A stretch of 63,629 bases of DNA, filler included, from Candidatus Tectimicrobiota bacterium (GCA_016193065.1; 7 parts of 7 records of this genome joined end to end with filler, not necessarily neighbours in it); one strand, 5' to 3'. Counted from the whole stretch's first letter, positions 1,149 through 53,516 are shown. Made by a program: numbers and translations. The notes: a model not told the origin generated them from the letters alone.

Positions 1149-1411
1149 GCCTGCGGTGGCAACTCCCTCGGACTGAGACAACTGAGGAAGCTGCTCTCCT
1201 GCCCTGAGCGGAAGTGCCGGGAGCAGCGGCACCCAGAGGGTACCCGATCGGGAGCGGCCAGGGATGGGAAACCGCGCAGCCTAAACTTGCTTTAAGACAG
1301 CTAAATGCTTAACGTGGCGGTAGCGGAGGGGTCCGGGTACCCGTCCTGGGTGTGGGCGCCCCGAAAGGGTCACTGCGGGAGGCTTGAAGCGAAGGGCGGG
1401 AGGGCAGCTTC
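1149..1411 (+). repeat. Structured intergenic element copy 1 (candidate ncRNA or MITE)
   Basis: Clear homology to 48726-49000; 19-bp closing stem 1187-1205/1393-1411 with two G-U pairs; carries micro-elements at 1230-1246 and 1334-1352. Confidence 0.8.
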
Positions 1412-1609
1412 ATTCGTGATACCGTAGGAATAGACAGGGAATTAGCAAGAATCGAGGTGGAGGTTTTGATTGCAACCCCGCGGGACTTTTGTTAGGCTAA
1501 GCTTCCTTAGGACGCCGCTGGTGTTGCCAAGTCATCCTGTATCCAATTGTCCAGCGAGTTGCAAGAAAACGAAGGGCTGATCGCCGACGCTTTCTTGGGG
1601 AGACACATC

Positions 1610-2032
1610 GTGAGCGAGCAGGAAGAGGAAAAAGAAGGCTTCCGCGTTCAGGATCGCCGCAGTTTTACGGAAACGGGAGAGCGCCGTCCCGGGTCAGAAG
1701 ATACCCACCAGGAACGCAGCCGGGAAACCGAGAAGCCACCTCCCCGGGAATCACGACCCCGGCAGGCCCCCCCGCGGCGCGAGGAGGTCCCAGAGATCGA
1801 CTTCGTGACTTTCCTCCTGAGCCTGGGAAGCCAGACGCTCATCCACCTGGGGGAAATTCCAGACCCTGTGAGCCGGAAGCGGGAGAAGAATCTGCTGGCG
1901 GCCAAGCAGACCATCGATCTGCTGGGAATCCTGGCAGAAAAAACCCAGGGGAATCTGACCCGGGAGGAAGATGGAGTCTTGCAGAACCTTCTGACCGATC
2001 TGCGGATGCGATACGTGAAGGCCGCGCCGTAA
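1610..2032 (+). CDS. DUF1844 domain protein
   Basis: FRVQDRR N-terminus; F..FLLSL, HLGEIPDP, AKQTIDLL, KTQGNL..EE, LRMRYV. Confidence 0.85.
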   Translation: MSEQEEEKEGFRVQDRRSFTETGERRPGSEDTHQERSRETEKPPPRESRPRQAPPRREEVPEIDFVTFLLSLGSQTLIHLGEIPDPVSRKREKNLLAAKQTIDLLGILAEKTQGNLTREEDGVLQNLLTDLRMRYVKAAP

Positions 2033-2037
2033 ATCCC

Positions 2038-3831
2038 ATGGCTGGCAAAATCCGCAGGCTTCCCGAAGATCTCTCCAATAAGATTGCAGCGGGTGAGGTC
2101 ATCGAGCGCCCTGCTTCCGTCGTCAAGGAAACCATCGAGAACGCTCTGGATGCGGGAGCCTCCCGCATCGATGTGGAGCTGGAACAGGCGGGGCTGTCTT
2201 TGATCCGGGTTCGGGATGACGGTGAGGGGATGAGCCGGGAAGACGCTCTCCTGGCCTGCGAGCGCCACGCCACCAGCAAGATCCGCATGCTGGAGGATCT
2301 CTCGGCCATCCACACCCTGGGCTTCCGGGGAGAAGCCCTGGCCAGCATCGCGGCCGTGGCGCGGCTGCGCCTGCAAACCCAACCGGCAGGCGATTTGACG
2401 GGAACCGAAATCGAATTGATTCCCGGAGGGAAACCGGAAGTTCGCGAGATCGGGATTCCCCGGGGAACGGTCCTCGAAGTGCGGGATCTGTTCTTCAACC
2501 TCCCCGCCCGGCGCAAGTTCCTGAAGAGTGAAGCCACCGAGCTGGGCCACGTGAGCCGCGTGGTCCACGACCTGGCGATGGCCAACTGTTCCGTCCATAT
2601 CCGGCTGCGCCACGGGGATCGCCTGCTCATCGATGCTCTGCCCACCCCCGATCCATTGCAGCGCCTGTCCTCCATTGTCGGTACGGAAGCAGCGCGAACC
2701 CTGGTGATGCTGCGCTCGAGCCGGGGCTCCCTTGACGTAGAGGCTTTAATCAGCAAGCCCGGGGAGGGGAGGCGCGACCGCGGCGCCCAGCATTTCTACG
2801 TCAACGGCCGCCCGGTGCGCGATCGCCTCATGGGCCACGCCCTTCAGGAGGCGACCCGGACCCTGTTTCCCGGCGATGCCTTTCCCGTAGCTTATCTGTT
2901 CTTGTCTCTGGATCCCGGGGATGTGGACGTGAACGTGCATCCCACCAAAGCGGAGGTGCGATTTGCCCGCAGCCAGGAGGTGCACCGTTTTTTGGTGGAA
3001 AGCCTGAGAATTCAGCTCATCCAGACTTTGCGAGGCGAGGGCGCGGTTCTTGCCGAGCCGGCTCCGGGCGGTTCGGGTTCCGAGAGCGGCGCCGGGGACG
3101 CGAACCTCCTCCGCGAGGAAGCCGCACCCTTTTTCACCTCCAGGCTTTCTCCTCTGCAATCCTCTTTCCCCTCGACGATGATCTGGAGTCCGGTGCCGGT
3201 GGAGCCCTTCGTGCAACCTCCGACCCTGTCTGCAGATCTCATCCATCTCTCCCCCCTGGGGCAGATCGATCAAACCTTCCTTCTGTTTGAAGGTCCCCGG
3301 GGCTTGTACGTGATGGATCAGCACACGGCCCACGAGCGGGTCCTCTACGAGCGCTTCCGCCGCCAGTGGGAAAGGGGGGCCGTGGAGGTGCAGGGGCTCC
3401 TGATCCCGGAGGTTGTGGAACTGGAGCCCGAGCAGGCCTGTTGGCTAAGCGAGCATCTGGCCGAACTGGAGGCCCTGGGATTTGAGGTGGAGCCCTTCGG
3501 CGGCCATAGCTTCGCAATCCGTGCCGCCCCCGCCAGCCTGCTCGCCCCGGGTACCTGCCTTGCGGGTGTCCGCAATCTTTTCTTGGGGTTGGTCGATTTC
3601 CTGGAGCACTGGGGGGGGCCGTCTCCCCTGCCGAACCTGGCCGATGCCGTGGTCCAGGTGATGGCCTGCCATCAGGCGGTTCGGGCCCACGATCCCCTTG
3701 GCCCCGAAGAGATGCGGGCCCTGCTTCGCGAACTGATGGCCGCCGAAAGCCCGTTTACCTGTCCCCACGGGCGTCCCACGATTCTCCTCTGGAGCCTGCA
3801 GGACCTGCAGAAGGAGTTCTTGCGCAAGTAG
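2038..3831 (+). CDS. mutL: DNA mismatch repair endonuclease MutL
   Basis: NKIAAGEVIERP, GFRGEAL, DVNVHPTK, DQHTAHER, ACH and CPHGRP motifs. Confidence 0.97.
   Translation: MAGKIRRLPEDLSNKIAAGEVIERPASVVKETIENALDAGASRIDVELEQAGLSLIRVRDDGEGMSREDALLACERHATSKIRMLEDLSAIHTLGFRGEALASIAAVARLRLQTQPAGDLTGTEIELIPGGKPEVREIGIPRGTVLEVRDLFFNLPARRKFLKSEATELGHVSRVVHDLAMANCSVHIRLRHGDRLLIDALPTPDPLQRLSSIVGTEAARTLVMLRSSRGSLDVEALISKPGEGRRDRGAQHFYVNGRPVRDRLMGHALQEATRTLFPGDAFPVAYLFLSLDPGDVDVNVHPTKAEVRFARSQEVHRFLVESLRIQLIQTLRGEGAVLAEPAPGGSGSESGAGDANLLREEAAPFFTSRLSPLQSSFPSTMIWSPVPVEPFVQPPTLSADLIHLSPLGQIDQTFLLFEGPRGLYVMDQHTAHERVLYERFRRQWERGAVEVQGLLIPEVVELEPEQACWLSEHLAELEALGFEVEPFGGHSFAIRAAPASLLAPGTCLAGVRNLFLGLVDFLEHWGGPSPLPNLADAVVQVMACHQAVRAHDPLGPEEMRALLRELMAAESPFTCPHGRPTILLWSLQDLQKEFLRK
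3548..3568 (+). mobile_element. 21-bp micro-element inside mutL
   Basis: CGGGTACCT-GCCTTGC-GGGTG, one mismatch to the consensus. Confidence 0.75.
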
Positions 3832-3921: not shown

Positions 3922-5385
3922 ATGCTGCCGGAAAACATACCGGAAGCCTTGACGTTTGATGACCTGCTGTTGGTGCCCGGGCGCTCCCGGGTCTTGCCAC
4001 GTGATGTGGATGTAACCACCATGCTGACCCGGAAGATTCGCCTGAATACTCCCCTGGTCAGCGCCGCCATGGACACGGTCACGGAATCGGCGCTGGCCAT
4101 CGCCCTGGCTCAGGAGGGGGGAGTCGGAATCATCCACAAGAATCTGTCCATCGCGTCCCAGGCCCACGAGGTGGATAAGGTGAAGCGGTCGGAGAGCGGG
4201 ATGATCGTGGATCCGATCACCATAGGGCCTGATCGCAAGGTCAGCGACGCCCTGGAACTCATGAGGCGTTACCGGATCTCCGGGGTCCCGATTACCCGGG
4301 GGACCAAGCTGGTGGGGATCCTGACCAACCGGGATCTGCGCTTCGAGACGAACCTGGAGAAGAAAATCGGCGATCTCATGACCAAGGAGAATTTGATCAC
4401 CGCGCCCGAGGGAACCACCCTGGAGCAGGCCAAGAGAATTCTCCACGAGAACCGCATCGAAAAGCTCCTGGTCGTGGATCGGGAGTTTAACCTGAAAGGG
4501 CTCATCACGATCAAGGACATTGAGAAGGCTCGAAAGTATCCAAACGCCTGCAAGGATTCCCTGGGCCGGCTGATGATTGGAGCCGCGGTGGGGGTTGGTG
4601 AAGATCGGGCCGAGCGCGTGCAAGCCCTGGTCGAGGCAGGGGTGGATGTGCTGGCGGTGGATAGCGCTCACGGCCATTCGGAAGCGGTCTTGAAAACCGT
4701 GGAGTGGATTAAAGGAAACTACCCCCAGCTTCAGGTCATTGCGGGAAACGTGGCGACGGGGGAGGGGACCCGCGATCTGATCCAGGCAGGCACCGATGCC
4801 GTCAAGGTCGGCATCGGGCCCGGCTCCATCTGCACCACGCGGATCATCGCCGGAGTGGGCGTTCCCCAACTGAGCGCCGTCTCCGAGTGCGCCCGGGCGG
4901 CGGCCGAGGCCGGCATTCCCATCATCGCCGACGGGGGCATCAAGTTCTCCGGGGACCTGACCAAGGCCCTGGCGGCGGGGGCCAACTCCGTGATGATCGG
5001 CGGCCTCTTTGCGGGCACCGAAGAAAGCCCCGGAGAGAAGGTTCTCTTCCAAGGCCGCAGCTACAAGGTCTACCGCGGGATGGGATCCATCGGCGCCATG
5101 AGCGAGGGGAGCAGCGACCGCTACTTCCAGGAAGGAGAGCTTTCCGATGCCAAGCTCGTCCCCGAAGGGGTGGAAGGCAGAATCCCCTACAAGGGCCCCG
5201 TCTCCTCCGTGGTTTTCCAGTTGATCGGCGGGCTCAGGGCGGGCATGGGCTACTGTGGGGTCGCCACCATTGAAGAGCTCAGGCGCCATTCCCGTTTTGT
5301 GCGCATCACTTCCGCAGGGCTCAAAGAGAGTCACGTCCATGACGTGATTATCACCAGAGAAGCCCCGAATTACCAGAGGGAGTAG
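3922..5385 (+). CDS. guaB: IMP dehydrogenase
   Basis: [17 protein letters not shown] pair, [23 protein letters not shown]. Confidence 0.98.
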
Positions 5386-5576
5386 TGCCGGGCCAATTAA
5401 CTTCGCCTAACTTCGTTTATCGCCCCTCGCGCTCCCTGCGGCGTACTTTCTATGTACGCCTCAGTCGGCTCGGGGCTCGCGCCTCGTTATGCTCGTTTCT
5501 TGGCCCGGCAATATGCCGAGAGTTTTCGTCCGATTTAATTGGCAGAGGGAGTAGGACTCCGTTGGAGAGACACTAG
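5383..5576. mobile_element. MITE-like element copy 1 (ends TAGTG-N5-CCAA)
   Basis: Starts at the guaB TAG stop, ends TTGGAGAGACACTAG; homologous in inverted orientation to 53331-53516; GCGGCGTAC...GTACGCCTCA core. Confidence 0.8.
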
Positions 5577-7150: not shown

Positions 7151-10100
7151 ATGACCACGGCTGACTTTGTTCATCTCCACGTGCACAGCGAGTACAGTCT
7201 TCTGGACGGAGCCAACCGCCTCGATCAACTGATGGCGAAGGCCAGGGATTTCGGCATGGGCTCCATTGCGTTGACGGATCACGGCAACCTCTTCGGTGCC
7301 ATCCAGTTCTACAAGAAGGCCCGGGAGTACGGCATCCATCCCGTCCTGGGCTGCGAGGTCTACACGGCTCCGTCCAGCCGCTTTGAGCGCAACCCGGCCC
7401 AGGGCATCGGGGATTCCAGCAACCACCTGGTTCTGCTGGCGGAAAACGAGACGGGGTACAGGAATCTGATCCATCTGGTGACGGCGGGTTACCTGGAGGG
7501 GTTTTATTACCGTCCCCGGGTCGATCGGGAAATTCTGGCGGAGCATTCCGAGGGTCTGATTGTTTTCAGCGGCTGCCTGAAGGGGGAGATCCCCAGTTAC
7601 CTTTTGCAGGGCCAGACGGAGCGGGCCCGCCAGACGGCTTGCTGGTTTCGTGATGTTTTCGGTCCGGACCGCTTTTTCCTGGAGCTCCAGGATCACGGCC
7701 TGGAGGAGCAGGCCCATGTGAGCCCCATGCTGATCGACATGGCCCGCAAGCTCCAGATCCCCCTGGTGGTGACCAATGACTGTCACTACTTGAACCAGGA
7801 TGATTCCGTGGCCCACGATGTCCTGCTCTGCATACAGACGGGAAAAACCGTCAATGACCCCAAGCGGCTCAAATTTGCCACGAACCAGTTCTACGTGAAA
7901 TCTCCCCGGGAGATGGAGGAGCTCTTCGACGGGGTTCCCGAGGCTCTGAGCGTCACCCGGGAGATTGCCGAGCGTTGCCATCTCGATTTCCCCTTCGGCC
8001 AGATTCATCTCCCCCGCTACGAGACCCCGCCCGGAACGAACCTGGACGGCTACCTGGAGACTCTGGCCCGCAAGGGTCTGGAGGAGCGCCTGCGGCAGGC
8101 CGGCCTGTGGGGCGGCGAAGAAGCAGGCCGCTACCGGGAGCGCCTGGACGAGGAACTGCAGATCATCAACCGCATGGGGTACGCCGGTTACTTCCTGGTG
8201 GTCTGGGACTTCATCGACTACGCCCGCCGCCAGGGGATCCCCGTGGGTCCGGGCCGGGGTTCCGCGGCGGGGAGTCTGGTGGCCTACTCGCTACGGATCA
8301 CGGACCTGGACCCGATCCGCTACGGCCTCCTCTTCGAGCGCTTTCTGAACCCGGAGCGGATCAGCATGCCGGACATCGACATCGACTTTTGCATGGAGCG
8401 CCGGGACGAGGTGATCGACTACGTGGTGCGCAAGTACGGGCGGGAAAATGTGGCCCAGATCATCACCTTCGGAACCATGATGGCCAAGGCCGCGGTCCGG
8501 GACGTGGGCAGGGCCATGGACATGCCCTATGGGGAAGTGGACCGGATCGCCAAGCTGATTCCCAACCGTCTGAACATCACTCTTAGCGAGGCCATTCAGG
8601 ACGAAAGCCGGCTGGCCGAGTTGCAGGCCGCGGACCCCAAGGTCGATTTCCTGCTGAAGACGGCGCAGAAAATCGAGGGTCTGACCCGGCATGCCTCGAC
8701 CCATGCGGCCGGGGTGGTGATCTCCCCGCGGCCTCTCGCCGAGTTCGTGCCCCTGTACCGGGGCTCCAAAAACGAAATTCTCACCCAGTACGCCATGGGG
8801 GACATCGAGAGCCTGGGGTTGCTGAAGATGGATTTCCTGGGTTTGAGGACGCTCACGGTGATCCGCCATACGCTGGTTCTGGTCCGCGAGACTTCCGGGG
8901 TCGACCTGACGCCCGAGGAGCTTGCGCTGGACGATCCGGACACTTACGCCCTCCTGGGAGAAGCGCGCACGCTGGGGGTCTTTCAACTGGAGGGAAGCGG
9001 CCTCAGGGAAATCTTGCGAAAGCTGAAGCCGGAAGTCTTCGAGGACCTGATCGCCCTGGTGGCCCTCTACCGTCCGGGGCCTCTGGGCAGCGGGATGGTC
9101 GAGGACTTCATCCGGCGCAAGCACAAGCAGGTGCCGATCCACTACGATCACCCGCTGCTGGAAGAGATCCTGAAGGAGACCTACGGGGTCATCCTGTATC
9201 AGGAACAGGTCATGCAGATCGCCAGTGTCCTGGCCGGTTTTTCCCTCGGAGAGGCGGATCTCCTGCGCCGGGCCATGGGGAAAAAGCAGCCGGAGATCAT
9301 GGCCCAGCAGCGCCAGAAATTCCAGGAAGGGGCGCGCAGCCGGGGAATACCGGAAGGGGTGGCGATCAAGATTTTTGACCAGATGGAATACTTTGCCGGC
9401 TACGGGTTCAATAAATCCCACAGCGCCGCTTACGCCCTGGTGGCGTACTGGACCGCCTACCTGAAAGCCCACTTTTCCCGGGAGTTCATGGCGGCCCTGC
9501 TGACCAGCGACATGGACAACACGGACAAAGTCATCAAGTACCTGGATGGATGCCGGGAAATGGGGATTCCGGTTTCTCCCCCCGACGTGAACGAGAGCAG
9601 CAAGGATTTCTCCGTGGCCGGCAACTCACTGCGGTTCGGGCTGGCGGCGGTCAAGAATGTCGGGGTGGCGGCCGTGGAGAACATCCTGGCCGTGCGGCAG
9701 CGCAGCGGCCCATTTCCTTCCCTGGAAGCTTTCTGCCAGAGCATTGACCTGCGGGCGGTGAACCGGCGGGTGATAGAGAGCCTGATCAAGGGCGGGGCCT
9801 TTGATGGCTGGGGGATCTCGCGCGCCGCGCTCATGGCGGATCTGGACAAGACCATCGAAGTGGGGCACCGATCCCAGAAAGACAGAGAGACGGGACAAAC
9901 CAGCCTCTTCTCCCTGGTGAATCAGGTTCCGGAGCGAAAGCCCCGCACCAAACCGGTTCCCGAATGGCCGGAGAGCCTGCGGCTGCAGTACGAGAAGGAA
10001 GCCCTGGGCTTCTACATCACCGGCCACCCCCTGGCTCGATACGCCCAGCTCCTGAAGGCCTTTACCAACTCCACCACGCAGACCCTGGCGGAGAAGAACG

Positions 10101-10609
10101 GGAACCGGGAGGTGAGCCTGGGAGGGATGGTGAACAAGCTGCGCTCTCTGGTGACCAAGAAGGGAGATCCCATGGGGATCTTCGAGCTGGAGGACCTCTA
10201 CGGTTCGGTGGAAGTCGTGGTCTTCCCGGATGTTTACAAAGATGCCGGGCAATTTCTGGCAGGAGAAGAACCCGTTTGGGTCAAGGGGACCGCGGAGGTG
10301 GACGGGGATGCGGTGAAACTCAGAGCCAGCCGCGTGTTGCCCTTGGAGCAGGCCCCCCTCCTGCAGGGGTTTTCCGTGCACATTAATCTCCAGGTTGAAC
10401 AGGTGAAGCGTTCCACTCTCCTGGGGCTGCGCGATTTGCTGCAGGGCAGCCAGGGGGAGAGCAAAGTGTATCTCCACTTTCATTTCCCGAAACAAAGCAC
10501 AATCCATATGCTGGCCGGAAATTCTTTCCGGATCCTCCCCGAAGGTCCAATCCTGGAGGCCATCGAAGGCCTTGTCGGGGAAGGAAGCGTCGTGCTGGAG
10601 CCGGGCTAG
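7151..10609 (+). CDS. dnaE: DNA polymerase III alpha subunit
   Basis: PHP HLHVHSEYS, GRGSAAGS, PDIDIDF, KMDFLGL, FNKSH; no intein-sized insertion. Confidence 0.98.
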   Translation: MTTADFVHLHVHSEYSLLDGANRLDQLMAKARDFGMGSIALTDHGNLFGAIQFYKKAREYGIHPVLGCEVYTAPSSRFERNPAQGIGDSSNHLVLLAENETGYRNLIHLVTAGYLEGFYYRPRVDREILAEHSEGLIVFSGCLKGEIPSYLLQGQTERARQTACWFRDVFGPDRFFLELQDHGLEEQAHVSPMLIDMARKLQIPLVVTNDCHYLNQDDSVAHDVLLCIQTGKTVNDPKRLKFATNQFYVKSPREMEELFDGVPEALSVTREIAERCHLDFPFGQIHLPRYETPPGTNLDGYLETLARKGLEERLRQAGLWGGEEAGRYRERLDEELQIINRMGYAGYFLVVWDFIDYARRQGIPVGPGRGSAAGSLVAYSLRITDLDPIRYGLLFERFLNPERISMPDIDIDFCMERRDEVIDYVVRKYGRENVAQIITFGTMMAKAAVRDVGRAMDMPYGEVDRIAKLIPNRLNITLSEAIQDESRLAELQAADPKVDFLLKTAQKIEGLTRHASTHAAGVVISPRPLAEFVPLYRGSKNEILTQYAMGDIESLGLLKMDFLGLRTLTVIRHTLVLVRETSGVDLTPEELALDDPDTYALLGEARTLGVFQLEGSGLREILRKLKPEVFEDLIALVALYRPGPLGSGMVEDFIRRKHKQVPIHYDHPLLEEILKETYGVILYQEQVMQIASVLAGFSLGEADLLRRAMGKKQPEIMAQQRQKFQEGARSRGIPEGVAIKIFDQMEYFAGYGFNKSHSAAYALVAYWTAYLKAHFSREFMAALLTSDMDNTDKVIKYLDGCREMGIPVSPPDVNESSKDFSVAGNSLRFGLAAVKNVGVAAVENILAVRQRSGPFPSLEAFCQSIDLRAVNRRVIESLIKGGAFDGWGISRAALMADLDKTIEVGHRSQKDRETGQTSLFSLVNQVPERKPRTKPVPEWPESLRLQYEKEALGFYITGHPLARYAQLLKAFTNSTTQTLAEKNGNREVSLGGMVNKLRSLVTKKGDPMGIFELEDLYGSVEVVVFPDVYKDAGQFLAGEEPVWVKGTAEVDGDAVKLRASRVLPLEQAPLLQGFSVHINLQVEQVKRSTLLGLRDLLQGSQGESKVYLHFHFPKQSTIHMLAGNSFRILPEGPILEAIEGLVGEGSVVLEPG

Positions 10610-12090: not shown

Positions 12091-12176
12091 CCGTTCGCCT
12101 GGTTCGACAAGCTCACCACAGGCTTCGACCGCGGGTACCCGCGAAGCGGGTGCGGCTTCCGGGTGAGGGCGAACGG
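12091..12176. repeat. REP-like hairpin cluster carrying a nested double micro-element (12130-12165)
   Basis: CCGTTCGCC...GGCGAACGG ends; one empty unit TTCGAC-AAGCTC-A and one filled unit TTCGAC-[element]-A. Confidence 0.85.
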
Positions 12177-16134: not shown

Positions 16135-16327
16135 CGGCCAGGTCCAGCACCGCTTCGTGGTAAGCAGACCAGGCTTTTTGAAACTCCTCGGGAAGCAGGT
16201 TCCGGATGTTCAAAGAGCGGACCAGGACCAGGAACCCTTCCGGAAGGATGCGTTGAAATTCCAGAGCTGGAACGTCGTACACTGCCGTCGGGTTGATGAA
16301 ACCGATTCTGCCTCGCCAACCGTACAT
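16135..16327 (-). CDS. Asp/Glu racemase / maleate isomerase family protein, 5' part
   Basis: MYGWRGRIGFINP N-terminus; truncated by the gap. Confidence 0.7.
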
Positions 16328-16352
16328 AGAGAGCCTCCCTTGGAAAACGGCC

Positions 16353-37179: not shown

Positions 37180-37198
37180 AGCCGCTGCTGTCTCCGGC

Positions 37199-37615: not shown

Positions 37616-37738
37616 GGCCGGATCCTACTCCTTCCGAGAGGAAAGGAAACACAAAACCGGTCAACCCGGCAGCAACGTGAATCACTGTCATTCCGTCAGG
37701 CGGGTCGTCCAGGCCCGGGCCGCTGCGCAGGAGAGGTG

Positions 37739-37945: not shown

Positions 37946-38001
37946 AGTCTTTCCCCTCCCAGCGCGGCGGGCGTCCGCGTCTTTTCACGCGGACTCCGCC
38001 G

Positions 38002-38724
38002 TCAAGATTCTGTTCCACTCCCGGACCTCTTTGCTACTTCTTCCATGAGGTCAATTTGAACCTGCTGGATCTCGATCAAACGCTGCCACTGGTGGGACAA
38101 CAAATGGTCCAACTTTTCGTGAAGCTGGCGGATTTCCAGCTCCGCCTTCAGGTTGATCTGGTAGTCGTTCTCCGACCGCAGGCGATCTCTGGACTCCAGG
38201 CGGTTCTGGCTCATCATGATGATGGGAGCCTGAATGGCAGCCAGGCAGGACAGGACCAGATTGAGAAGAATGAAGGGAAAGGGATCAAACGGTTTCCTCA
38301 GCAGCATCACCGAATTGATCCCGATCCAAACGACGAGCACCGCCCCGAACGTCAGGATAAAGGTCCAGCTCCCGCCGAACGAAGCGATCTTGTCGGCCAG
38401 CCTTTCCCCGAGCGTTAAGGCCTTTTCAAACTCCACGTTGATGTTGCTGGACAGGAACTCATGCTGCTTGAGGCTGTCGACGACCTCCGCTTCCAGGGAC
38501 GAAAATTCCCCCTTTTCCGCTTCCAGGAGGTCTTCGATGTATTCGGCGCGAAACCGGTTCAGGTCGGTGAGACAGATGTATCCGGTCCGGGACCAGTTCG
38601 AGTGCCGCTTCCGGATCAGTTCCGCGATGGAGTTTCGGACCGCTTCCGCGGGCATCAGTTCGCTGCGGCTCACTGTCCGGCCGCAGATCTGGCAGGTGAT
38701 GGGAATGGGTTTCTTCTCTTTCAT
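38002..38724 (-). CDS. DUF1003 domain membrane protein
   Basis: GERLADKIASFGGSWTFI, FDPFPFILLNL, QAPIIMMSQNR. Confidence 0.92.
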   Translation of the reverse strand: MKEKKPIPITCQICGRTVSRSELMPAEAVRNSIAELIRKRHSNWSRTGYICLTDLNRFRAEYIEDLLEAEKGEFSSLEAEVVDSLKQHEFLSSNINVEFEKALTLGERLADKIASFGGSWTFILTFGAVLVVWIGINSVMLLRKPFDPFPFILLNLVLSCLAAIQAPIIMMSQNRLESRDRLRSENDYQINLKAELEIRQLHEKLDHLLSHQWQRLIEIQQVQIDLMEEVAKRSGSGTES

Positions 38725-39074
38725 TGCCTGGCTCCTCCCGCCGCCCTCCCGGAGCGACGACCGGGGACTTCGCCGCGCCGCACTCTCCTACGATAGGTCC
38801 GCACCGCAAGAAAACCATTAGAACTCAATTAGAATCCTCTCATGGGATGTGTAGGGAGGAACCTCAATTCCGCGAAGCCAAAACACGCATATACACCCCA
38901 TATGGAAGAAATCTCTCTGACTCAGTTAGTTTTCAGACGCTTGAGCCAACCAGAACGGGACTTTTTCGCCTCCAGGCCAAACCTCTATGCGCTGCCCTTT
39001 AGGCTATAGAAGTAACCCCCAAAATGTCATATACTTAGATCGATCAGCTAGTCTGTGCAGAGGCTTGAAGGAAA

Positions 39075-41131
39075 ATGATCGATCGGGCAGTAGAACTGAT
39101 TACGGCTCAAGAATTCGAGATGGTTACCAGTTCCTGGGACCCAGAAAAGTGGGCCCGTTTCTGCAACACCCTGATCGCCAGCTACGCGGAAGGGTTGAAA
39201 TCAGAAATTGGTGTCCAGGGGCAGATTTATGCCCCCGACGGGGGTATCGATGCCGAGCTAGTTGTACACGAGCCAGATCTTCACGAAGACACCTTCGGCT
39301 TACTGGGACCGGGAAAAACCGTTTATCAGTTCAAGAAACGGGATGTGAGTGGGCGGAATAGGAATGAGATCATTGCTAAGTTCAAGGGAAAAGAAGAGGC
39401 AGAGAAAATCGCCCGTGGTCAAGAAGTCCCGGACAGATACGTGTTTCTCACCAATGTGGAACTGCAACGAAAACAACGCGAGTCACTAAAACATAAAATC
39501 CAATCCGGATTCGGCCCCAAATCTCCCGTGGCTGTTCGGGTTTTTGGAGCCGCTGAATTAACCGCTCTGGTACTGAACCGTCCTCACCTCCAGCAGATCT
39601 TCTTCGCCCGCGGTCCATTCTACTCCTACGAAGAAGCGAGGCAGATGCATATACGGGCTTCCCGAGCCGGGGAAATTCCACCTTTCGTGGGGCGGGAAGA
39701 AATTCTGAAAGAATTAACAGCGGTTCTCCTGGACCCTCAGTGCAGGGTGATCGTGCTCTATGGTCCCCCGGAAGTCGGGAAGAGCCGTCTGTGCCTGGAA
39801 GCGCGAAAGTCTCAAGAATGGCGAGCAAGGAGCGCATGGGCTTCAGATCCCTTTCAGGTTTCCGCCGAAGACTTGCGACGCCTGGAGCCTCCCAAGAATG
39901 TCGTGTTTGTAGTACTCGAAGATCTCGATGAGCAGCGCGCCGAAGAGCTGGCCCGCCATGCCAGCATAAGAGAGCATCTGAAGCTGATCATCACGTCGCG
40001 CCGCCCCGTTTTTGCAAAAGAACCTTTTTGGGTCCGACAGCTAGAAGTGAGTCCCCTAGAAGATCATGAAGCAGCAAGGCTCATTCGGGAGGAATCCGGA
40101 CGCCGCCTCTCAGGATCTTGATGAATCATTAGGTGATCTGAAGACCCGGGTCGGGGAATCGCTTGCGCGCCAGCTAACCTCCAATCTCACGCCCGATGAA
40201 CTGAAGCACCTGCGCATTTTGTCCCTGCTACCCACAGTGGGCGTCGAAGGCAATTACCGAGACGAGCTTGAAGCACTCTGCAAGTCAGCCGGGGTGAGTT
40301 CCGGAGACATGCTGGCGGAGCTTGCCGACTTTGAAAGGGAAGGGCTACTCATACGCAGGGGCTCTTTCGTCGCGGTTATCCCTTCTTTGCTGGCGAACCA
40401 TCTCGCTCTCACGGCTCTCTCGGACAGGCAAGAGGTTCTCGACAATCTCTTTGCAATACTCCCCCCCAGAGGTCGCCTCGCTCTGGCCAGGAGGCTCAGC
40501 GAAATAGGAGGGAAAAAGGTCCAGGCATTTCTTCGAGACATCCTGGGACCCCGGGGCGTCTTCAAGAACGTCTCGGATCTGGAGGCGAATCCAAGACTTC
40601 TGAATGAGCTGAGCCTTGCCGATCCATCAGCCGTCCTCGAATGCTTGACTCGCCTCATCAAGAAAAATCTCGGTCCGGAAGAGAGAAGGGAGCAAATCGC
40701 GAGAGATCTGAGAAGTCACGTCATTTCTGCGCTCGAAGATCTGTTGGGTTTCGAGGCAACGTTTGCCGGAGCTGTAGAACTTCTCTTCCTTTTAGCGCAA
40801 CCATCCCCAGATCCCCGTCTCCCTCGACGAACGATTGGACCGTCTAAACTATCTCGCCACCAATTACCCAAAATCTCATGCGATTCTTGTGCATGCCGTG
40901 GAGGACGCATTTTCCCAATTCATTGTTCGAGTCCGCCAGGGCCAAGCGGGACGCCCGTACGACCGGGAATGGTGGCCACGGCCTGAAGAAATCTCCAGAT
41001 ACGTCGAAGGGATCTTGTTTCTGCTAAAGTCGTTCGCGGAGGAAAACGAGAACTCTGAGACAGCCAGGGAGGCCTGCAACGCAATTGCAGAGATCGTTAA
41101 GGAGATATTCTTTTGGGCCAAGGACAGTGCA
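39075..41131 (+). pseudogene. PD-(D/E)XK nuclease-STAND NTPase protein, split over three frames and truncated by the gap
   Basis: DGGID..QFK nuclease motif, FVGRE, Walker A GPPEVGKS, Walker B VVLED; frame changes near 40115 and 40800. Confidence 0.7.
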
Positions 41132-41253: not shown

Positions 41254-42412
41254 TCAAATGACACCCGCTTGCTTGAGAATCGTCAGATCCTCGTGTCTGA
41301 GACCGAGCTCCCCTCCATAGATCTCAAGATTGTGCTCTCCGATCCGCGGTGCCCTGCAGCGGGGAGTGAAACTGCCCTGCGTGAAAAGGGCCGCCGGCCC
41401 CGGATAAGTGATCTCGCGTCCCAGCTCGGGATGAGGGAGCGTCACCCAAAAGTTCCTGGCCGCCAGTTGGGGATCGTTGAAGATGTCCTCCGGGGTCTGG
41501 ACCGGGTAGCCGAGCATGCTCCGTTCTATGACGCCCGCGAAGTATTCCGCTTTGGTCAAGGTCTTAAGAAACTCTCCGGCAGGCTTCTCGATGGCGTCGA
41601 TCTGTTCCTGGGTCGCGGTCGCGATGTCGAACTTGTCCCAATCAATCTCCTTTAGGTGAGCGGGGGCCATCCCCTTGCTGTCCATCCATTTCACCATCTC
41701 CCGGTTCGTCTTGCCGGTGAGGGTCGTCCCGGTTCAGGTCCCAGCAGGCCGGCGCGTGCGCCAGTGAGGAGAGGGTGCTCGCCTGGGCGGAAACATCCAC
41801 GTGCTGGCCTTCGCCGCTCAGCTCGCGCTCATAGTGAGCCATCAGGGTCCCCGCTGCCGCGTGCATCCCGGTCCACATGGGCGATTGGGGCAGAGAAATC
41901 CTCAGGGGCGGTCCATTTCTTTCCCCCGACAACGACATGGCACCCGATGTGGCCATGATTTCGATGTCGTGAGCTTTATAACCGCTATAGGGTCCGGACT
42001 GGCCAAAAGGGGTAATGGAGGTAAGGACGAGCCGGGGGGTTTCCTGCTTCAGGACCTCATAGCCGAGGCCCCAGCCTGCCAGCGTCCCCGGAGGGAAAGA
42101 TTCAAGGACGAAATCCGCTTTTCTGACCAGTCGCTTGAAAAGTTCCTGACCCGTTTTCTCAGTGATATTGAGCGTAATCCCCCGCTTGCTCGTATTGTAC
42201 GCAAACCAGTAGAGGCTCTTTTCCGGATCGAGCACGCCGTCCACGAACGGCCCGATGCTCCGGGAAGGATCACCGCCGGGGGGCTCCACCTTGATCACAT
42301 CGGCCCCCATATCCCCCAGAATCTTTCCGCACAGAAAACCCAGGTCATCGGTGAGATCAAGAACCCGATAAGGAGCTAAGATCCCCTCGGGCTGGTTCGG
42401 AACCTTATCCAT
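41254..42412 (-). pseudogene. Class III CoA-transferase (CaiB/BaiF), frameshifted near 41725
   Basis: N-part RVLDL, GADVIKVEPPGGD, GEGQHVDVS; C-part DPQL..R, AP.IGEHN in another frame. Confidence 0.8.
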
Positions 42413-42469
42413 CTCCTGGCTCTCCTCTGCCAGAATCCTTCCTGCCTGCGGCCGGAATGCCGGCACAAG

Positions 42470-44814: not shown

Positions 44815-46434
44815 TTACGGGGCCCCGCCTGATCCGCACCCACTTCGTGGGTACCCGCGCTTTGCGGGTGTCCCGTAGCCGCCCCCTCCCGGGGTAGAAA
44901 TCGAGATTCGATCTCCCCTGGCGGTGCAAAAGGTCACTTTGCCGGGCAGGGGCTCCACTCTTCCTTCCCGGGTGAGAAGATTCTCCCCGGGTTTCCCGGG
45001 ATACCCCCCCTGAAGTCCATAGGGGGCAAACTTCCTGCGTTCCGAGAGAATGGACACTGTGGCCGGCGTCAAACACTCTATTTCCCGGATGATTCCGTCC
45101 CCGCCTCTCCGGCTCCCGGCCCCTCCGGACCCCCTCCGTAATCCGTACCGGAGCACCCGCAAGGGAAACGACAATTCCAAGGCTTCCACCGGAGTATTCA
45201 TGGTATTCGTCATATGGGTGTGAACCCCATCCAGCCCGTCTCGATCCGGGCGGGCCCCCATTCCCCCAGCGATGGTCTCATAGTAGGTAAAAGGCTCTCC
45301 TGTCTGCGGGTCCACCCCTCCCACGACCAGGCTGCTCATGCTTCCGCAACTGGCGGCCGGTATGCGCTCCGCTATAGCCTGGGCCAGAGCCCCCAAAAGA
45401 ACATCCACAATCCGCTGGGAAGTTTCGGTATTACCGGCTCCCACGGCAGCCGGGTAGACCGCGTTGACGACCGACCCCCGGGGAGCCCGGATTTCGATCG
45501 GAGACAGGACACCTGAGTTACTCGGTAGACGTGGATCACTTAATGAACGAAAGACGTAGAAAACTGCTGCCACCGTGACCGCCAATACCGCATTGACCGG
45601 CCCCTGACACTGGGGATCAGAGCCCGTGAAATCGACCGCGGCCTTCTCACCAGCAATGGTGATCTGGACGGCGATTCGAACGGGCTCCTCGGAAATCCCG
45701 TCATCGTCCAAATAATCAGTAAAGGAGTAAACCCCGTCCGGAATCTCCCGGATCATGGCCCGGGTCATCCGTCCCGAATACTCGAGCAGAGAAACCATCG
45801 CCTCGCAGGTCAGCTCGACCCCTTCTTTACGGAGGAGTTCCGACAGCCGGCGTTGCCCGGTGTAATTCGCGGCCACCTGCGCCATCAAATCCCCCCGGCG
45901 CTCCTCCGGAGTCCGCACGTTGGCCAGGATCAGGCGCAGGAGATGCTCATCGACCTCCCCTGCGCGGCAGATCCGCAGGGGGGGCAACCGCAGCCCTTCC
46001 TGAAAGATTTCCCGGGCTGTGGACAGCGATCCGGGAGCCATGCCTCCCACATCAGCGTGATGGGCCCGGTTCGCGACAAACCCGACCAGCCGGTCTGCGG
46101 CGGCCGAAAAGACCGGAGCCACCAGGGTTAGATCGGGGAGATGGGTGCCGCCGCGGTACGGATCGTTGAGCAGGACCATGTCCCCTGGTTCCCACGCGGG
46201 CATGGACTCCAGCGCGCTTTGTACGGACATCGGCATAGAACCCAGGTGCACGGGGAGATGGGAGGCCTGCTCCACCATGCGCCCCTGGGAGTCGAACAGG
46301 GCGCAAGAATAATCCCGCCGCTCCTTTATATTCGGGGAAAACGCGCTGCGGCACAGGGCTACCCCCATCTCCTCAGCAATAGCGCTGAAGCGGTGCCGAA
46401 AAATTTCCAGCCTGACGGGATCCATTCTCTCCAA
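44815..46434 (-). CDS. Hydantoinase B / 5-oxoprolinase family subunit
   Basis: SPNIKERRDYSCA, NDPYRGGTHLPD, HHADVGG, NTPVEALE, TPGGGGYG. Confidence 0.93.
   Translation of the reverse strand: MERMDPVRLEIFRHRFSAIAEEMGVALCRSAFSPNIKERRDYSCALFDSQGRMVEQASHLPVHLGSMPMSVQSALESMPAWEPGDMVLLNDPYRGGTHLPDLTLVAPVFSAAADRLVGFVANRAHHADVGGMAPGSLSTAREIFQEGLRLPPLRICRAGEVDEHLLRLILANVRTPEERRGDLMAQVAANYTGQRRLSELLRKEGVELTCEAMVSLLEYSGRMTRAMIREIPDGVYSFTDYLDDDGISEEPVRIAVQITIAGEKAAVDFTGSDPQCQGPVNAVLAVTVAAVFYVFRSLSDPRLPSNSGVLSPIEIRAPRGSVVNAVYPAAVGAGNTETSQRIVDVLLGALAQAIAERIPAASCGSMSSLVVGGVDPQTGEPFTYYETIAGGMGARPDRDGLDGVHTHMTNTMNTPVEALELSFPLRVLRYGLRRGSGGAGSRRGGDGIIREIECLTPATVSILSERRKFAPYGLQGGYPGKPGENLLTREGRVEPLPGKVTFCTARGDRISISTPGGGGYGTPAKRGYPRSGCGSGGAP
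44835..44870. mobile_element. Nested double micro-element in the hydantoinase B 3' end
   Basis: CG[CACCCACTTCGTGGGTACCCG]CGCTTTGCGGGTG. Confidence 0.85.
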
Positions 46435-48580: not shown

Positions 48581-48725
48581 TCCGCCCACCCCCAGTTTGC
48601 CTAAGAATGAAGAATTGCTACCCCCATGAACTCCTCGGGGTGCCCCCTTGGGCTCACGAAGCGCTTGCGATGAGACATTTGCCGGCTGAATCGAGAGAGG
48701 TGTTCGCCTCGCAACCGCTTAGATC

Positions 48726-49000
48726 GCCTGCGGGGGCAACCCCTCGGAGGAGAGAGCACCAAGGGGACTGTCCTTCCTGCCCTGAGCGCAACTGCCGGGA
48801 GCAGCGCAACACCCGCAAAGCGGGTACCCGCACCGGGAGCGGCCAGGGATGGGAAACCGCGCAGCTAGACTTGCTGGCAGATAGCTGAAAACTTATCGTG
48901 GCGGTAGCGGAGGGCTCCGGGTACCCGTCCTGGGTGTGGGCGCCCCGAGAAGGGTCGCTGCGGGAGGCGTGGAGCGAAGGGCAGGAAAACAGTCCCTTTG
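48726..49000 (+). repeat. Structured intergenic element copy 2 (candidate ncRNA or MITE)
   Basis: Homologous to 1149-1411; closing stem 48760-48783/48978-49000; micro-elements at 48810-48830 and 48918-48936. Confidence 0.8.
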
Positions 49001-49111: not shown

Positions 49112-49159
49112 AGAGAAGATTGATCGATGATTTCCATCCGTGAGAGGGGGAAACTCCTG

Positions 49160-50902
49160 GTGAAAAAGGTCATCGCAAAGGAAGGGGCCGGTTACTGCAT
49201 GGGGGTGCGCAGGGCGATGAACATCGTCCTGGACGCCGCCAACAAAGAAGAGAAATCCGTCACGACCTTTGGACCCATCATCCATAACCCCCAGGCCGTA
49301 GAGATCCTTAATTCCAAAGACGTAAGAGTTGTCAACCAGGTCTCCGAGCTCAAGTCAAACGGCACCGTCATTGTCCGGGCCCATGGAATTGGCCCCGACG
49401 TGCGCCAGGAGCTCAAATCCACAGGGCTTACCATTCGCGATGCCACCTGCCCCCTGGTCAGCAAGGTTCACTCCTCCATCCGGCGCTACCTGAAGCGCGG
49501 GCACCACCTGATCATTGTCGGAGAGGAAAAGCACCCCGAGGTGATTGGGCACCTCGGCTTTGCCCGCGGGCAGGGGAGCGTGATCAGCAGAATCGAAGAC
49601 GTCGAGAAGCTGCCTGATTTCAAAAAGGTCTGCGTCGTTTCCCAAACCACCTTTGACGAGGAGTACTTCCTGCAAATTGCAGACGCCCTAAGAAAACGTT
49701 ATCCGGTCTGCGAGGTGGTCAACACAATATGCTTCGAGACCTTGAACCGCCAGAGGGAGGTCCGGGAGATGGCCCAGAAGGTCGATGCCATGGTGGTCAT
49801 CGGCGGCAAAAACAGCGGCAATACCCGGCGCCTGGCTCAGATTTCCGAGTCTTACGGAATCCCTGCTTTCTTCGTCGAGACCGAGAAAGAGATCAACCTG
49901 GACGAGCTCGAAAAGTTTGAGAGTGTCGGCATCACAGCCGGCGCATCGACACCCAACTGGCTTATCCAGAAAGTCATTGATCACATCGATGCCCTCGAGC
50001 ACCGTCACGAGCCTCTCTGGATGCAGGGGCTGAGGCGAATGACGACCACCCTCTTCCGTCTCAGCTTCTTCGTCGCTCTGGGCGCCGCCCTTCTTACCCA
50101 CGGAGCCGCATTGCTCCAGGGGATCCAACCCAAGCCCGTCTACCCCCTCATAGCCATCCTCTACACACTTTCCATGTTCATCTTAAACCGCTGCCTGGAT
50201 AAGGAGGCGGATAAATTCAACGAGCCCGGCCGCACAGAGTTTTACGAGCGGCACGGGCGGTCCCTGCTGGGAGCCGGCCTGGCCGCCGGCATCACTGCCC
50301 TGGCTCTGGCTTTCCCTCTAGGACCCCTTCCCTTTCTGTGTCTGCTGATCTTTAGCCTGGCGGGGGTTCTCTACAGTGTAAGGCTCATTCCGCCGCGCTG
50401 GCAGGATGTGCTTCACATACGGCGGCCCAAGGATATACCGGCTTCGAAGAGCTTTTTCATTCCGATCGCCTGCGCCGTGGTGATGGTCTTTATCCCCTAT
50501 CTGAGTTCGGATTCCGGAGCACTGCCGGCAACCCTGGCCACGAGTCTTTTCGTCTTCACGGTTGTTTTCCTGCGCACGGCTCTGCTGGACATGAGCGACA
50601 TCGAGCGGGACCGGATCGCAGGCAGCGAAATCCTGACCATGCTCATCGAAAAGCCGGCGACCCTCAGGCTGCTCTGGGGCATGCTCGGGTTCATGGCTGC
50701 CGTCGTCACGGGGCTCGCCCTGGCCGGTTGGTTATCCCTTCTCGCAGTTGCCATGCTGGCGGCTCTGGGATATTCCGCTTTGAGCCTCTACCTTTACCAG
50801 CGCAAGGTGGTTTTCAACGGCCTCACATTTCTCCTCATAGTGGACGGCAACCTGATCGTAGCAGGTCTTCTGGCCTATCTAGGGTCCCTATTGCTGGCCT
50901 AA
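49160..50902 (+). CDS. ispH: IspH (HMBPP reductase) fused to a UbiA-like membrane domain
   Basis: AGYCMGVRRA, IIHNP, DATCP, NTIC..T..RQ, SGNT, TAGASTP; C-terminal TM bundle with N..LD..AD..N and DMSDIERD motifs. Confidence 0.92.
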   Translation: MKKVIAKEGAGYCMGVRRAMNIVLDAANKEEKSVTTFGPIIHNPQAVEILNSKDVRVVNQVSELKSNGTVIVRAHGIGPDVRQELKSTGLTIRDATCPLVSKVHSSIRRYLKRGHHLIIVGEEKHPEVIGHLGFARGQGSVISRIEDVEKLPDFKKVCVVSQTTFDEEYFLQIADALRKRYPVCEVVNTICFETLNRQREVREMAQKVDAMVVIGGKNSGNTRRLAQISESYGIPAFFVETEKEINLDELEKFESVGITAGASTPNWLIQKVIDHIDALEHRHEPLWMQGLRRMTTTLFRLSFFVALGAALLTHGAALLQGIQPKPVYPLIAILYTLSMFILNRCLDKEADKFNEPGRTEFYERHGRSLLGAGLAAGITALALAFPLGPLPFLCLLIFSLAGVLYSVRLIPPRWQDVLHIRRPKDIPASKSFFIPIACAVVMVFIPYLSSDSGALPATLATSLFVFTVVFLRTALLDMSDIERDRIAGSEILTMLIEKPATLRLLWGMLGFMAAVVTGLALAGWLSLLAVAMLAALGYSALSLYLYQRKVVFNGLTFLLIVDGNLIVAGLLAYLGSLLLA

Positions 50903-51826: not shown

Positions 51827-52025
51827 CCCCGATCCGGAAAAAGATTCAGGAAGGAGTGCGCAGACTGGCACTCATCCATGACATGGAGGATTCGGTAGTT
51901 AGATTCATAAGCCCGCAAGCGCACAGTGGGACCGCGGGGCATGTGAGGTTATTTGGCTCCTCCCGAGCCTTTCAGGGAGCCTTCGCATTGGTCAAAATTT
52001 CGGATCGGGGTTAGGAGGACAGGCC

Positions 52026-53297
52026 ATGGAGTTAAAGAAACGGCTGGAGCCCTGGGTATTCAAGGTCCCCATCGACAAAATCCGGGCCGGTTATTACACC
52101 GACAAGTACTTCCTCCGGGTAAGCGAGATCCTCGAAAAGGAAAATCACAACCCCCGGGTCATGTACCAGTTTTTTGTCCGGGAGCCGGTGGTGGTGGTGG
52201 GGATCGACGAAGCCATAGCGATCCTCAAATTCTGCACCGGCTACTATTCGGACCGGGAGGCCGCCGATCGCCTCTACAAGCGACTCCGGGAGGTGCAATA
52301 CAACCTCTACCGGCTAACGGACCAGGGGCCCGAGGAGACCATTGCGGGCCTCCACGTGGAGAGGGCCCGGATCCGGCAGGAATTGAACCGGCTCTGGGTG
52401 AACTGCTGGAACCAGATCCGGGTGCGGGCTCTGTTTGACGGAGATCGAGTCGAACCATGGGAGCCCCTCATGATCATCGAGGGCCCCCAGCAATACTTCG
52501 CCTATCTGGAAACCGTCTTGCTCGGGGTCATCGCCCGTCCCACCGCCACTGCCACCGCCACCGCGGAAGTGGTCGGGGCAGCCCAGGGCAAGCCGATCCT
52601 GTTTTTTCCAGCCCGCTTCGACCACTTCTGGGTGCAAGCGACGGACGGGTACGCAGCCATGAAGGCCGGAGCCTTCGGGGTCAGCACGGATGCCAACGCG
52701 GATTACTGGGGAGACGTGGGGGTCGGGACGATCCCCCACTGCCTGATCGCCGCTTACGGCGGCTCCACTGTGGAAGCCTCCCTGGCCTTCGACCGGCAGA
52801 TCGAGGACAGCGTAAACCGGGTCGTTCTGGTGGATTGGGACAACGATTGCATCGGGACCACCCTGCAGGTGATCAACGCCCTTTACGACAAGCATTGGGG
52901 AGTCACCCCGCGGGATCTGAAAAAGGCCGTGGGCCCGGGAAAGCACAAGATCTGGGGGATTCGCTTCGACACTTCCGGGAACCTGCGCGATAAGTCGGTG
53001 GCCCCACACGACGAACACAGTTTGGGAGTCTGTCCGGAGCTCGTGCACAAGGCCCGGGAGGTTTTTGACGCCCACGGGCTTCAGGATCTGAAGATCGTCG
53101 CCTCCGGAGGATTCAACGCCGCCAGGATCGAGCTGTTTGAGAAACTCCAGGTCCCGGTCGATTCCTACGGCGTCGGCTCAAGCTTGCTGCAAAAAAAAAT
53201 CGACGTCACCGCCGATGTGGTGGAGGTGGATGGCAAGCCCTGCGCCAAGGTCGGTCGCAAAAAAGGAGATCTCAGCCGGCTTGCCCCGGTCGATTAG
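52026..53297 (+). CDS. Nicotinate phosphoribosyltransferase-like protein
   Basis: YTDKYF, FFPARFDH, GTIPH, LVD.DND, IRFDTS, ASGGF, YGVGS. Confidence 0.85.
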   Translation: MELKKRLEPWVFKVPIDKIRAGYYTDKYFLRVSEILEKENHNPRVMYQFFVREPVVVVGIDEAIAILKFCTGYYSDREAADRLYKRLREVQYNLYRLTDQGPEETIAGLHVERARIRQELNRLWVNCWNQIRVRALFDGDRVEPWEPLMIIEGPQQYFAYLETVLLGVIARPTATATATAEVVGAAQGKPILFFPARFDHFWVQATDGYAAMKAGAFGVSTDANADYWGDVGVGTIPHCLIAAYGGSTVEASLAFDRQIEDSVNRVVLVDWDNDCIGTTLQVINALYDKHWGVTPRDLKKAVGPGKHKIWGIRFDTSGNLRDKSVAPHDEHSLGVCPELVHKAREVFDAHGLQDLKIVASGGFNAARIELFEKLQVPVDSYGVGSSLLQKKIDVTADVVEVDGKPCAKVGRKKGDLSRLAPVD

Positions 53298-53330
53298 TCC
53301 CCGGACGGTCTAGATCTCTGATCCGAGGTG

Positions 53331-53516
53331 CTAGTGCGGTTCCAACTATCTTGCCCTGAGAGAGCGGCTAACGTGCCGGGCCAAGGAACGAGCATAACGA
53401 GGCGCGAGCCCAGAGCCGACTGAGGCGTACTAAGGAAGTACGCCGCAGGGAGAGCGAGGGATCGCGCCCAGGACGGGCACCCGGAAGTTAGGCGAAGTTC
53501 ATTGGACCGGCACTAG
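53331..53516. mobile_element. MITE-like element copy 2 with a 19-bp micro-element variant at 53465-53483
   Basis: CTAGTGCGGTTCCAA...TTGGACCGGCACTAG; right CTAG contains the Rrf2 gene stop. Confidence 0.82.

Follow-up and report, generated by a model that had tools for sequence, protein, structure and literature searches.

An apparently undescribed ultra-small hairpin insertion element with in-frame copies in the genes of an uncultivated bacterium

Copies of the element between and inside genes

A 63,629-base stretch of DNA from Candidatus Tectimicrobiota bacterium (GCA_016193065.1), made up of seven contigs of a metagenome bin with N spacers between them and called the window below, carries 14 copies of a hairpin sequence that is usually 21 nucleotides (nt) long. 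Judged from the sequence, these copies represent a real and apparently undescribed insertion element of ultra-small size, and the copies inside genes are true in-frame insertions. The two strands of the window together hold 10 exact matches to the pattern CGGGTACCC-N3-9-GGGTG; in 100 dinucleotide-preserving shuffles the average is 0.00. The octamer GGGTACCC has 11 matches against 0.86 expected; 10 of these lie within elements and the remaining one, at position 62236, is ordinary coding sequence. The total is made up of ten exact copies, two that have diverged and two outer copies left as remnants by nesting, distributed over four of the seven contigs (Table 1). An earlier reading of this DNA, made from the sequence alone (the sequence-only reading), had listed at least 14 copies on four contigs, and all of its coordinates hold under exact and one-mismatch pattern matching. 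The genome has received copies repeatedly and recently, between as well as inside genes, and the element looks to be among the smallest mobile DNA elements seen.

Every 21-mer is built as CGGGT / ACCC-NN-NNN-N'N'-GGGT / G, with three arms (X-X'-X) that allow two possible pairings; the length of family members ranges from 17 to 25 nt. Under DNA parameters all nine 21-mers fold as .....((((((...)))))). with a 6-bp stem, a 3-nt loop and energies of -3.3 to -6.5 kcal/mol, and the 17- and 19-mers form 4-bp stems. The variable stem positions are Watson-Crick paired in nine of nine 21-mers through three types of centre (GC/GC, GG/CC and AC/GT), and the diverged copy at 53465 holds a compensatory double change in its stem (A6>G with T18>C), bearing out the proposal that the ends are conserved and that variation of the centre leaves the hairpin intact. 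The CGGGT at the start recurs 15 nt on, at the element end, so the unit can also be described as 1.4 turns of a 15-nt direct repeat. The third arm accompanies all eight long ACCC-NN-loop-N'N'-GGGT hairpins of the window, in which no bare hairpin of this form was found. Copy 27824 is continued by a tandem array (27787–27849) of period 15, with 4.1 copies and 93% matches in Tandem Repeats Finder; the sequence-only reading does not list this array.

Some copies are not independent. Those at 1334 and 48918, and those at 1230 and 48810, occupy matching positions of one ~210-nt repeat; since the first two are identical and share the same repeat position, they represent one ancestral repeat feature and not two events. 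Copy 35884 and the outer copy at 12130 are dependent in the same sense, lying in related repetitive extragenic palindromes (REPs). Elsewhere, CGGGTACCCGCCTTGCGGGTG at 27824 is also the canonical form of the copy in MutL (with C at 3556, as in contigs of runs X4 and X6), and the centre GCTTTGC is common to the 48810 copy and the outer copy of 44835–44870. Because identical 21-mers stand at non-homologous loci, copying from existing copies is supported. Open reading frames (ORFs) cover 86% of the window yet hold six of the 14 copies, as expected if many genic insertions are lost, and the 17- and 19-mers all lie outside ORFs, in keeping with the earlier statement that these lengths are confined to non-coding DNA.

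Comparison with orthologs, in which genic empty states were read from protein alignments and not from orthologous DNA, identifies an insertion of 5 aa or a multiple of 5 at four of four testable genic sites. In MutL, PGTCL is extra between LLA and (Q>A)GVRNLF and is missing from seven of seven aligned orthologs, including relatives of 82% and 70% identity. The DUF3352/PilP-type ORF 26691–28049 has +5, +5 and +15 aa relative to three of three orthologs (72, 57 and 55% identity), the longest of these stretches being the 15-nt tandem array, read as ADTRK repeats. The sequence-only reading had expected genic copies to add 5-aa inserts at net +15 bp and ortholog alignments to reveal the indels; both expectations agree with these alignments, with one site enlarged by the array. 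As each event adds a net 15 nt, reading frames survive. Position 3556 is T in the window and the canonical C in contigs of runs X4 and X6, and a contig of X6 with ~90% identity spans the MutL element site; the MutL copy is therefore common to close strains, and the window copy is decaying.

The C-terminal tail of hydantoinase B is encoded by the nested pair. In P0126, a relative of 90% identity that comes from a different source, the end reads ...GGYG-HPQSG-HPQSGYP-AERVPG; this is the intact outer copy translated in a different frame, with a 5-aa repeat from duplication of its initial 15 nt and an additional element-like stretch behind it. More distant relatives have unrelated tails. Since P0126 holds an intact outer copy and a 5-aa repeat of its own, the site has kept changing after the split from that lineage.

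An assembly or sequencing artefact might be suspected in a seven-contig metagenome bin. The MutL copy is found, one base different, in independent Logan contigs of other runs, and related copies stand in the assemblies of many projects and in relatives' protein records; an artefact is virtually out of the question. A selected functional site (a protein-binding or uptake-type signal, or an RNA or terminator hairpin), multiplied by point mutation like HIP1, would suit the high density of 14 copies in 63 kb, the enrichment outside ORFs, the conservation of the ends across phyla and an element copy in the JGI contig L117 that lies ~60 nt downstream of a gene's stop codon. We consider it very improbable, because the genic copies are block insertions relative to orthologs and not substitutions; moreover, copies occur in both orientations within one gene set, nest and expand in tandem, and an Rfam scan of the window at gathering thresholds returned tRNA-Met only, with no family match for the element.

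Relatives in other phyla and the repeats that host the element

Public runs that contain contig 1 of the window, whole or in part, are groundwater metagenomes (seven runs from three studies). The MutL relatives of 82% and 70% identity are labelled 'bacterium' or carry no label, and the next best match, which is also the highest for any named lineage, falls to 44%; because of this drop, the organism is assigned to a poorly sampled lineage. MutL from the 10 genomes behind the pattern matches reaches best identities of 40–48%, and none of these is a relative of the window lineage.

Scanning one genome per species for the GC/GC form, with groups assigned by record title, identifies at least 109 loci: at least 26 in Gemmatimonadota, 19 in Actinomycetota, 17 in Nitrospirota, 11 in Chloroflexota, 8 in Deltaproteobacteria-type records, 6 each in Methylomirabilota/Rokubacteria, Planctomycetota and the candidate phyla radiation (CPR), 3 in Armatimonadota and 7 in other groups (all lower bounds). 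Pattern counts against a control read backwards are 17 versus 0, 5 versus 1, 3 versus 1, 4 versus 0 and 1 versus 0. Four CPR genomes (0.3–1.5 Mb) have 2, 1, 5 and 3 copies against 0 for the same control, and here the loci are 36–42% GC around a GC-rich cassette. Centres in the CPR are complementary too, as GC/GC, AC/GT, AT/AT or longer stems. Genes with in-frame copies encode a presenilin-like protein, a CCA-adding enzyme and, in two Saccharibacteria genomes that have the copy at an identical position, PheT; none of five CPR genomes has the motif in strict double-hairpin form. Taken together, the family, recognizable by its constant ends and a centre that varies but stays complementary, occurs at low copy number in the CPR, Gemmatimonadota, Nitrospirota and other phyla. 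With 10 exact copies in 63.6 kb (~160 per Mb) against 17 in the 7.1 Mb of a Gemmatimonadaceae genome (G011), the window lineage represents a strong expansion of a widespread but rare family.

Several larger repeats host the element. A conserved non-coding repeat of ~210–260 nt (two copies in the window and one in L117, 2330–2548 on the minus strand, sharing an identical 32-nt core, CGGGAGCGGCCAGGGATGGGAAACCGCGCAGC) is located upstream of genes that are not related to one another, namely DUF1844 plus mutL, an IspH-UbiA fusion and, in L117, an M24-like peptidase; its two variable spots are the hairpin element sites. L117 is the one contig outside the window in which a metagenome scan with a 23-nt core detected this repeat. 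It could be a leader RNA or a promoter-carrying miniature inverted-repeat transposable element (MITE); Rfam, at E up to 10, gave nothing for it but a chance small nucleolar RNA match. The fusion downstream of the second copy (ORF 49127–50902) has IspH (LytB) and UbiA prenyltransferase domains in a single frame. A second, MITE-like repeat of ~150 nt has terminal inverted repeats TGCCGGGCCAA / TTGGCCCGGCA, and its first copy has CAGAGGGAGTAG on both flanks. The REP family of the window, CCGTTC...TTCGACAGGCTCA...GAACGG, has compensatory arm variants; it resembles a 'FDKL...' type repeat of many phyla.

Comparable associations are seen outside the window. The REP family of G011 numbers 178 copies with constant arms (CATTCCGAGC / GAGGAAT) and varied perfect-hairpin tips of 5–28 nt, often with GAA or GCA loops, and has the look of modular 'tip-swapping'. 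In the CPR, the AT/AT variant (L043 1–60, L137 and L138) keeps the same AT-rich flanks (AATTTTCAA.. / ..TTCAATTTTCA) across two phylum-level groups and travels inside a larger composite unit; short repeats of the TTTTGAA type surround another CPR copy. The biology of the element includes insertion at the tips of hairpins as well as transport within larger repeats.

Table 1. Element copies, comparison sites and associated features of the window
Feature	Position	Strand	Remarks
17-mer, 4-bp stem, 3-nt loop	1230–1246	-	Exact pattern, fold; outside ORFs, in ~210-nt intergenic repeat
19-mer, 4-bp stem, 5-nt loop	1334–1352	+	Exact pattern, fold; ~210-nt repeat
21-mer inside mutL (2038–3831), read PGTCLAG	3548–3568	+	One mismatch, CCT for CCC; net +5 aa
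Nested pair	12130–12165	+	Inner 21-mer 12132–12152 replaces GGTACC of outer; outer remnant CG ... CGGCTTCCGGGTG
21-mer in DUF3352/PilP-family ORF 26691–28049	27254–27274	-	Exact pattern; net +5 aa
21-mer in DUF3352/PilP-family ORF, read TPAGRVP	27742–27762	-	Exact pattern; net +5 aa
21-mer 27824–27844 prolonged by 15-nt array (CGGGTGTCCGCCTTG)	27787–27849	-	Read (ADTRK)x3-AGTR; net +15 aa
21-mer at tip of REP hairpin 35868–35915	35884–35904	+	Exact pattern
Nested pair, 3' end of hydantoinase-B gene (44815–46434, minus)	44835–44870	inner -, outer +	Inner 44837–44857
21-mer, second ~210-nt repeat copy	48810–48830	-	Exact pattern, fold
19-mer, position equivalent to 1334	48918–48936	+	Exact pattern
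Diverged 19-mer in ~150-nt MITE-like repeat	53465–53483	-	Two changes, stem pair kept
REP without element, empty comparison site	58491–58523	+	
MITE-like repeat without element	5411–5422	+	Comparison not clean
~210–260-nt non-coding repeat	1150–1410; 48725–48990		
~150-nt MITE-like repeat	5383–5545; 53330–53500		
REP family	12091–12176 (composite); 35868–35915; 35945–35977; 58491–58523		
Contigs with zero element copies	16135–20557; 36694–41131; 58629–63629		G+C 0.54–0.59
Family III CoA-transferase, two overlapping ORFs	41254–41697; 41642–42466	-	Profile positions 3–220 and 273–366

The three contigs with zero element copies have the lowest G+C of the window; they might come from another genome of the bin, or the absence might be due to chance. 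The split of the CoA-transferase over two ORFs may reflect a frameshift or an assembly error.

The replacement footprint and what might move the element

A gain of 21 nt for a loss of 6 is the best, though not the sole, reading of the footprint. It is exact in the nested copies: at 12130 the flanks CG and CGGCTTCCGGGTG are as in the intact 35884 copy, with a new 21-mer in the place of GGTACC, and at 44835 the exact flanks of the outer copy enclose a new 21-mer for GGTACC, the intact outer form being seen in P0126. The earlier identification of the GGTACC of existing copies as a target stands for both nested pairs. Insertion at the palindrome centre (CGGGT^ACCCG) does not reproduce the nested sequences, and tandem duplication alone would account for the pairs only if two additional changes were assumed. 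Among the REPs, the empty site comprises 16+6+11 nt and the filled one 16+21+11 nt, with compensatory differences in the arms. In a Saccharibacteria PheT (L084), exactly seven codons, HPQGGYP, make up the 21-mer, where two codons, mostly x-Gly, stand in 53 of 54 homologs; the exception carries a different insert. Had 15 contiguous nt been inserted, CACCCG or TACCCG (His-Pro or Tyr-Pro) would be left over, which is seen in none of the 54. The PheT insert was placed by this 54-homolog alignment; the HMMER alignment with PDB sequences set the five extra residues a few positions downstream. No target-site duplication was found at the 12 flanks inspected. Telling against a constant rule, TCC follows four of 12 copies, and in MutL and at 27742 it falls in codons for residues common to close orthologs. 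We read the targets as preferentially G-rich or element-like.

A number of observations weigh against replacement by a mobile cassette. Three more diverged comparisons do not fit a 6-nt replacement cleanly: between the MITE-like copies the difference is 14 nt, over a poorly aligned junction, and the two sites of the ~210-nt repeat are offset from its L117 relative by +12 and by about +10/+17. The claim of a constant 6-bp replacement consequently survives in part: it is exact for both nested pairs and for a pair of REPs, holds at codon level in PheT, and does not hold in the MITE pair or the ~210-nt repeat. The last bases of the MutL element encode Gly-Val native to orthologs; because these residues are already in the orthologs, a 15-nt insertion beside an existing AGGGTG-like site fits equally well. 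The same overlap, with the CGGGT direct repeat at both element ends, qualifies the companion claim that targets are not duplicated, which agrees with the inspected flanks. The replaced PheT codons are mostly Gly-Gly and resemble GGCGGG within the element, and element-like targets make a homology- or template-driven origin possible instead of transposition. All genic empty states are known from proteins alone. Nor did indels at elements appear among the best-supported matches listed (runs X4–X7, at 80% likeness, where thousands of partial matches were foreign).

The same side of the balance holds the enzyme and distribution data. Pfam detected no transposase, HUH, GIY-YIG, HNH or reverse transcriptase domain in any of the 40 window ORFs scanned out of 51 picked, a scan that left out the large ORF 7151–10609 and some small ORFs, and no consistent enzyme pattern emerged in other element-bearing genomes. 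The scanned ORFs are ordinary metabolic and housekeeping genes, and the precomputed Pfam labels of MutL, the DUF3352 protein and hydantoinase B name no mobility-enzyme domain, which accords with the sequence-only reading that no candidate enzyme is visible in the window. In G011, where a single REP family has the 21-mer as one tip among many, the 21-mer probably spread together with this larger repeat. In genomes of ~65–70% GC we estimate that chance matches of the order of a hundred are expected collection-wide, so single matches in high-GC genomes prove little. Viral contigs have six loci, all at 65–79% GC and individually not separable from chance or ordinary hairpins; in two of these contigs the 21-mer is at the tip of a longer hairpin.

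Much of this would suit an origin in place: replication template switching and slippage would build and perfect hairpins wherever local sequence is GGGT/ACCC-rich or palindromic, with 15-nt units gained and lost through slippage between the CGGGT repeats. The window arrays and the HPQSG-HPQSG of P0126 fit such a process, as do the overlap of the element 3' end with native MutL Gly-Val codons, the likeness of the G-rich PheT codons to an element arm and the many perfect tips between constant flanks in the G011 REPs. Quasipalindrome correction (intrastrand template switching) yields perfect stems with compensatory changes, the form seen here. We nevertheless judge an in-place origin unlikely: the same nine 5' and five 3' bases return at loci and in phyla that are not related, among them AT-rich CPR genomes whose local sequence could not have furnished these bases; identical 21-mers occupy non-homologous loci; the PheT homologs lack the His-Pro/Tyr-Pro remainder; and a tandem model misses the exact flanks of the nested copies.

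With modest confidence we favour ultra-short, gene-less hairpin cassettes that are copied from copies, acted on in trans as a folded strand and substituted for ~6 nt. Existing copies would serve as the source of new ones; the process would recognize a folded single strand or cruciform, and the cassette would replace about 6 nt of a target that is often G-rich (GGGTG-/GGNGG-like) or the apex of a palindrome or hairpin. As the element encodes nothing, the mover would be a trans-acting enzyme or a host replication or repair activity; we infer mobilization in trans from the sequences. After arrival, slippage between CGGGT repeats 15 nt apart could produce the 15-nt tandem arrays, and the perfect stem may be kept by selection for mobilization or by intrastrand template switching.

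One version of this mechanism would have a REP-like sequence moved by a REP-associated tyrosine transposase (RAYT) or IS200-type Y1 (HUH) transposase, with single-stranded hairpins cut and joined beside a guide. Size, hairpin and a conserved GTAC 5' of the stem recall the REP head GTAG, the copies nest and cluster with REPs, and single-strand transposition proceeds without target duplication. Y1_Tnp genes are present in two of five CPR genomes with the element; they were not found in the other three, which are incomplete assemblies, nor in the scanned window ORFs. Six of the 14 copies lie inside ORFs, unlike REPs, and known Y1 systems insert beside their target without a 6-nt replacement. We find this version decidedly doubtful.

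A bolder form of the favoured mechanism has a cassette of at most 21 nt moved within and between phyla by one dedicated sequence- and structure-specific enzyme that would excise ~6 nt at an exposed loop, palindrome apex or G-rich site and set the folded cassette there instead. This is a speculative and rather unlikely extension; if true, no smaller autonomous unit of DNA mobility than the single-enzyme cassette would be known, and essential proteins would regularly receive 5-residue loops from it.

Comparison with known small repeats

How small dispersed repeats (SDRs), mitochondrial GC clusters and double-hairpin elements move is a decades-old question, because each family is known from one narrow host group. 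The present family makes movement testable, offering a defined 21-nt unit with invariant ends and a reproducible net +15 nt footprint, and its presence in CPR with small assemblies and few genes narrows the range of possible enzymes. Essential proteins of uncultivated bacteria, such as MutL and PheT, gain 5-residue loops from selfish DNA, with consequences for the way metagenome sequences are aligned, genes are called and protein families are modelled. A search of open-access text returned no description of the motif, whose letters matched only cloning primers among the matches listed, and no report in that text of palindromic in-frame insertions in Patescibacteria.

Rickettsia palindromic elements (RPEs), reportedly described by Ogata et al. 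in 2000, are palindromic, in-frame and translated, measure about 100–150 bp and are known only from Rickettsia. The element resembles them in its in-frame, translated insertion (MutL, the DUF3352/PilP-type protein and PheT) and differs in its 17–25 nt and its spread across phyla. REPs and bacterial interspersed mosaic elements (BIMEs) with RAYT are gene-less, extragenic hairpins of 20–40 nt with a GTAG head beside the stem, clustered or nested. Small size, lack of genes, a conserved head, clustering and nesting are shared with these; the differences are the six of 14 copies in ORFs, with four verified insertions, and a head, GGGTAC, that lies within a palindrome and is not GTAG. A MITE has terminal inverted repeats and a target-site duplication and derives from an insertion sequence; unlike it, the element is a single hairpin with one extra arm, has no duplication at the 12 flanks and is accompanied by no insertion sequence in the scanned window ORFs.

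Cyanobacterial SDRs, SDR5 among them, were reportedly described by Elhai et al. in 2008. In the parts of the literature available to us, SDR5 is 21 nt long (PMC13756078), enters HIP1 (GCGATCGC) at one exact point, between its third and fourth nucleotides (PMC4390886), and is reported in Nostocaceae only (PMC5861425); the same excerpts describe it as without coding capacity and of unknown function and mechanism (PMC4390886, PMC5861425, PMC13756078). Set beside these partial accounts, the element is likewise 21 nt (nine 21-mers here), non-coding and dispersed, and its new copies land in a palindrome, here GGTACC. In contrast to SDR5 as excerpted, new copies replace the GGTACC of CGGGTACCCG and split no HIP1 site, the palindrome belongs to the element itself, and the hosts are non-cyanobacterial, with CPR, Gemmatimonadota and Nitrospirota among them; the distinction is drawn from the description of SDR5 and not from its consensus sequence.

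The excerpts at hand on yeast mitochondrial GC clusters and Allomyces double-hairpin elements describe short GC-rich hairpin units in genes and spacers that merge and shuffle, are suspected to be mobile with no enzyme of their own and an unresolved mechanism, and have AG/ACT flanking repeats (PMC4478555). The merging and nesting of units is common to both, here as two nested pairs, one array and one REP-tip copy. As far as these excerpts go, the difference lies in the flanks, which share no AG/ACT-type repeat in the window, where the sole direct repeat, CGGGT, is inside the element; unlike GC clusters, the 21-nt unit also resides in bacteria, with a footprint best described by the loss of 6 nt. 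SDR5, GC clusters, RPEs and REPs each differ from the element in at least one tested defining feature; cyanobacterial SDR5 and the mitochondrial GC clusters appear to be the closest in kind.

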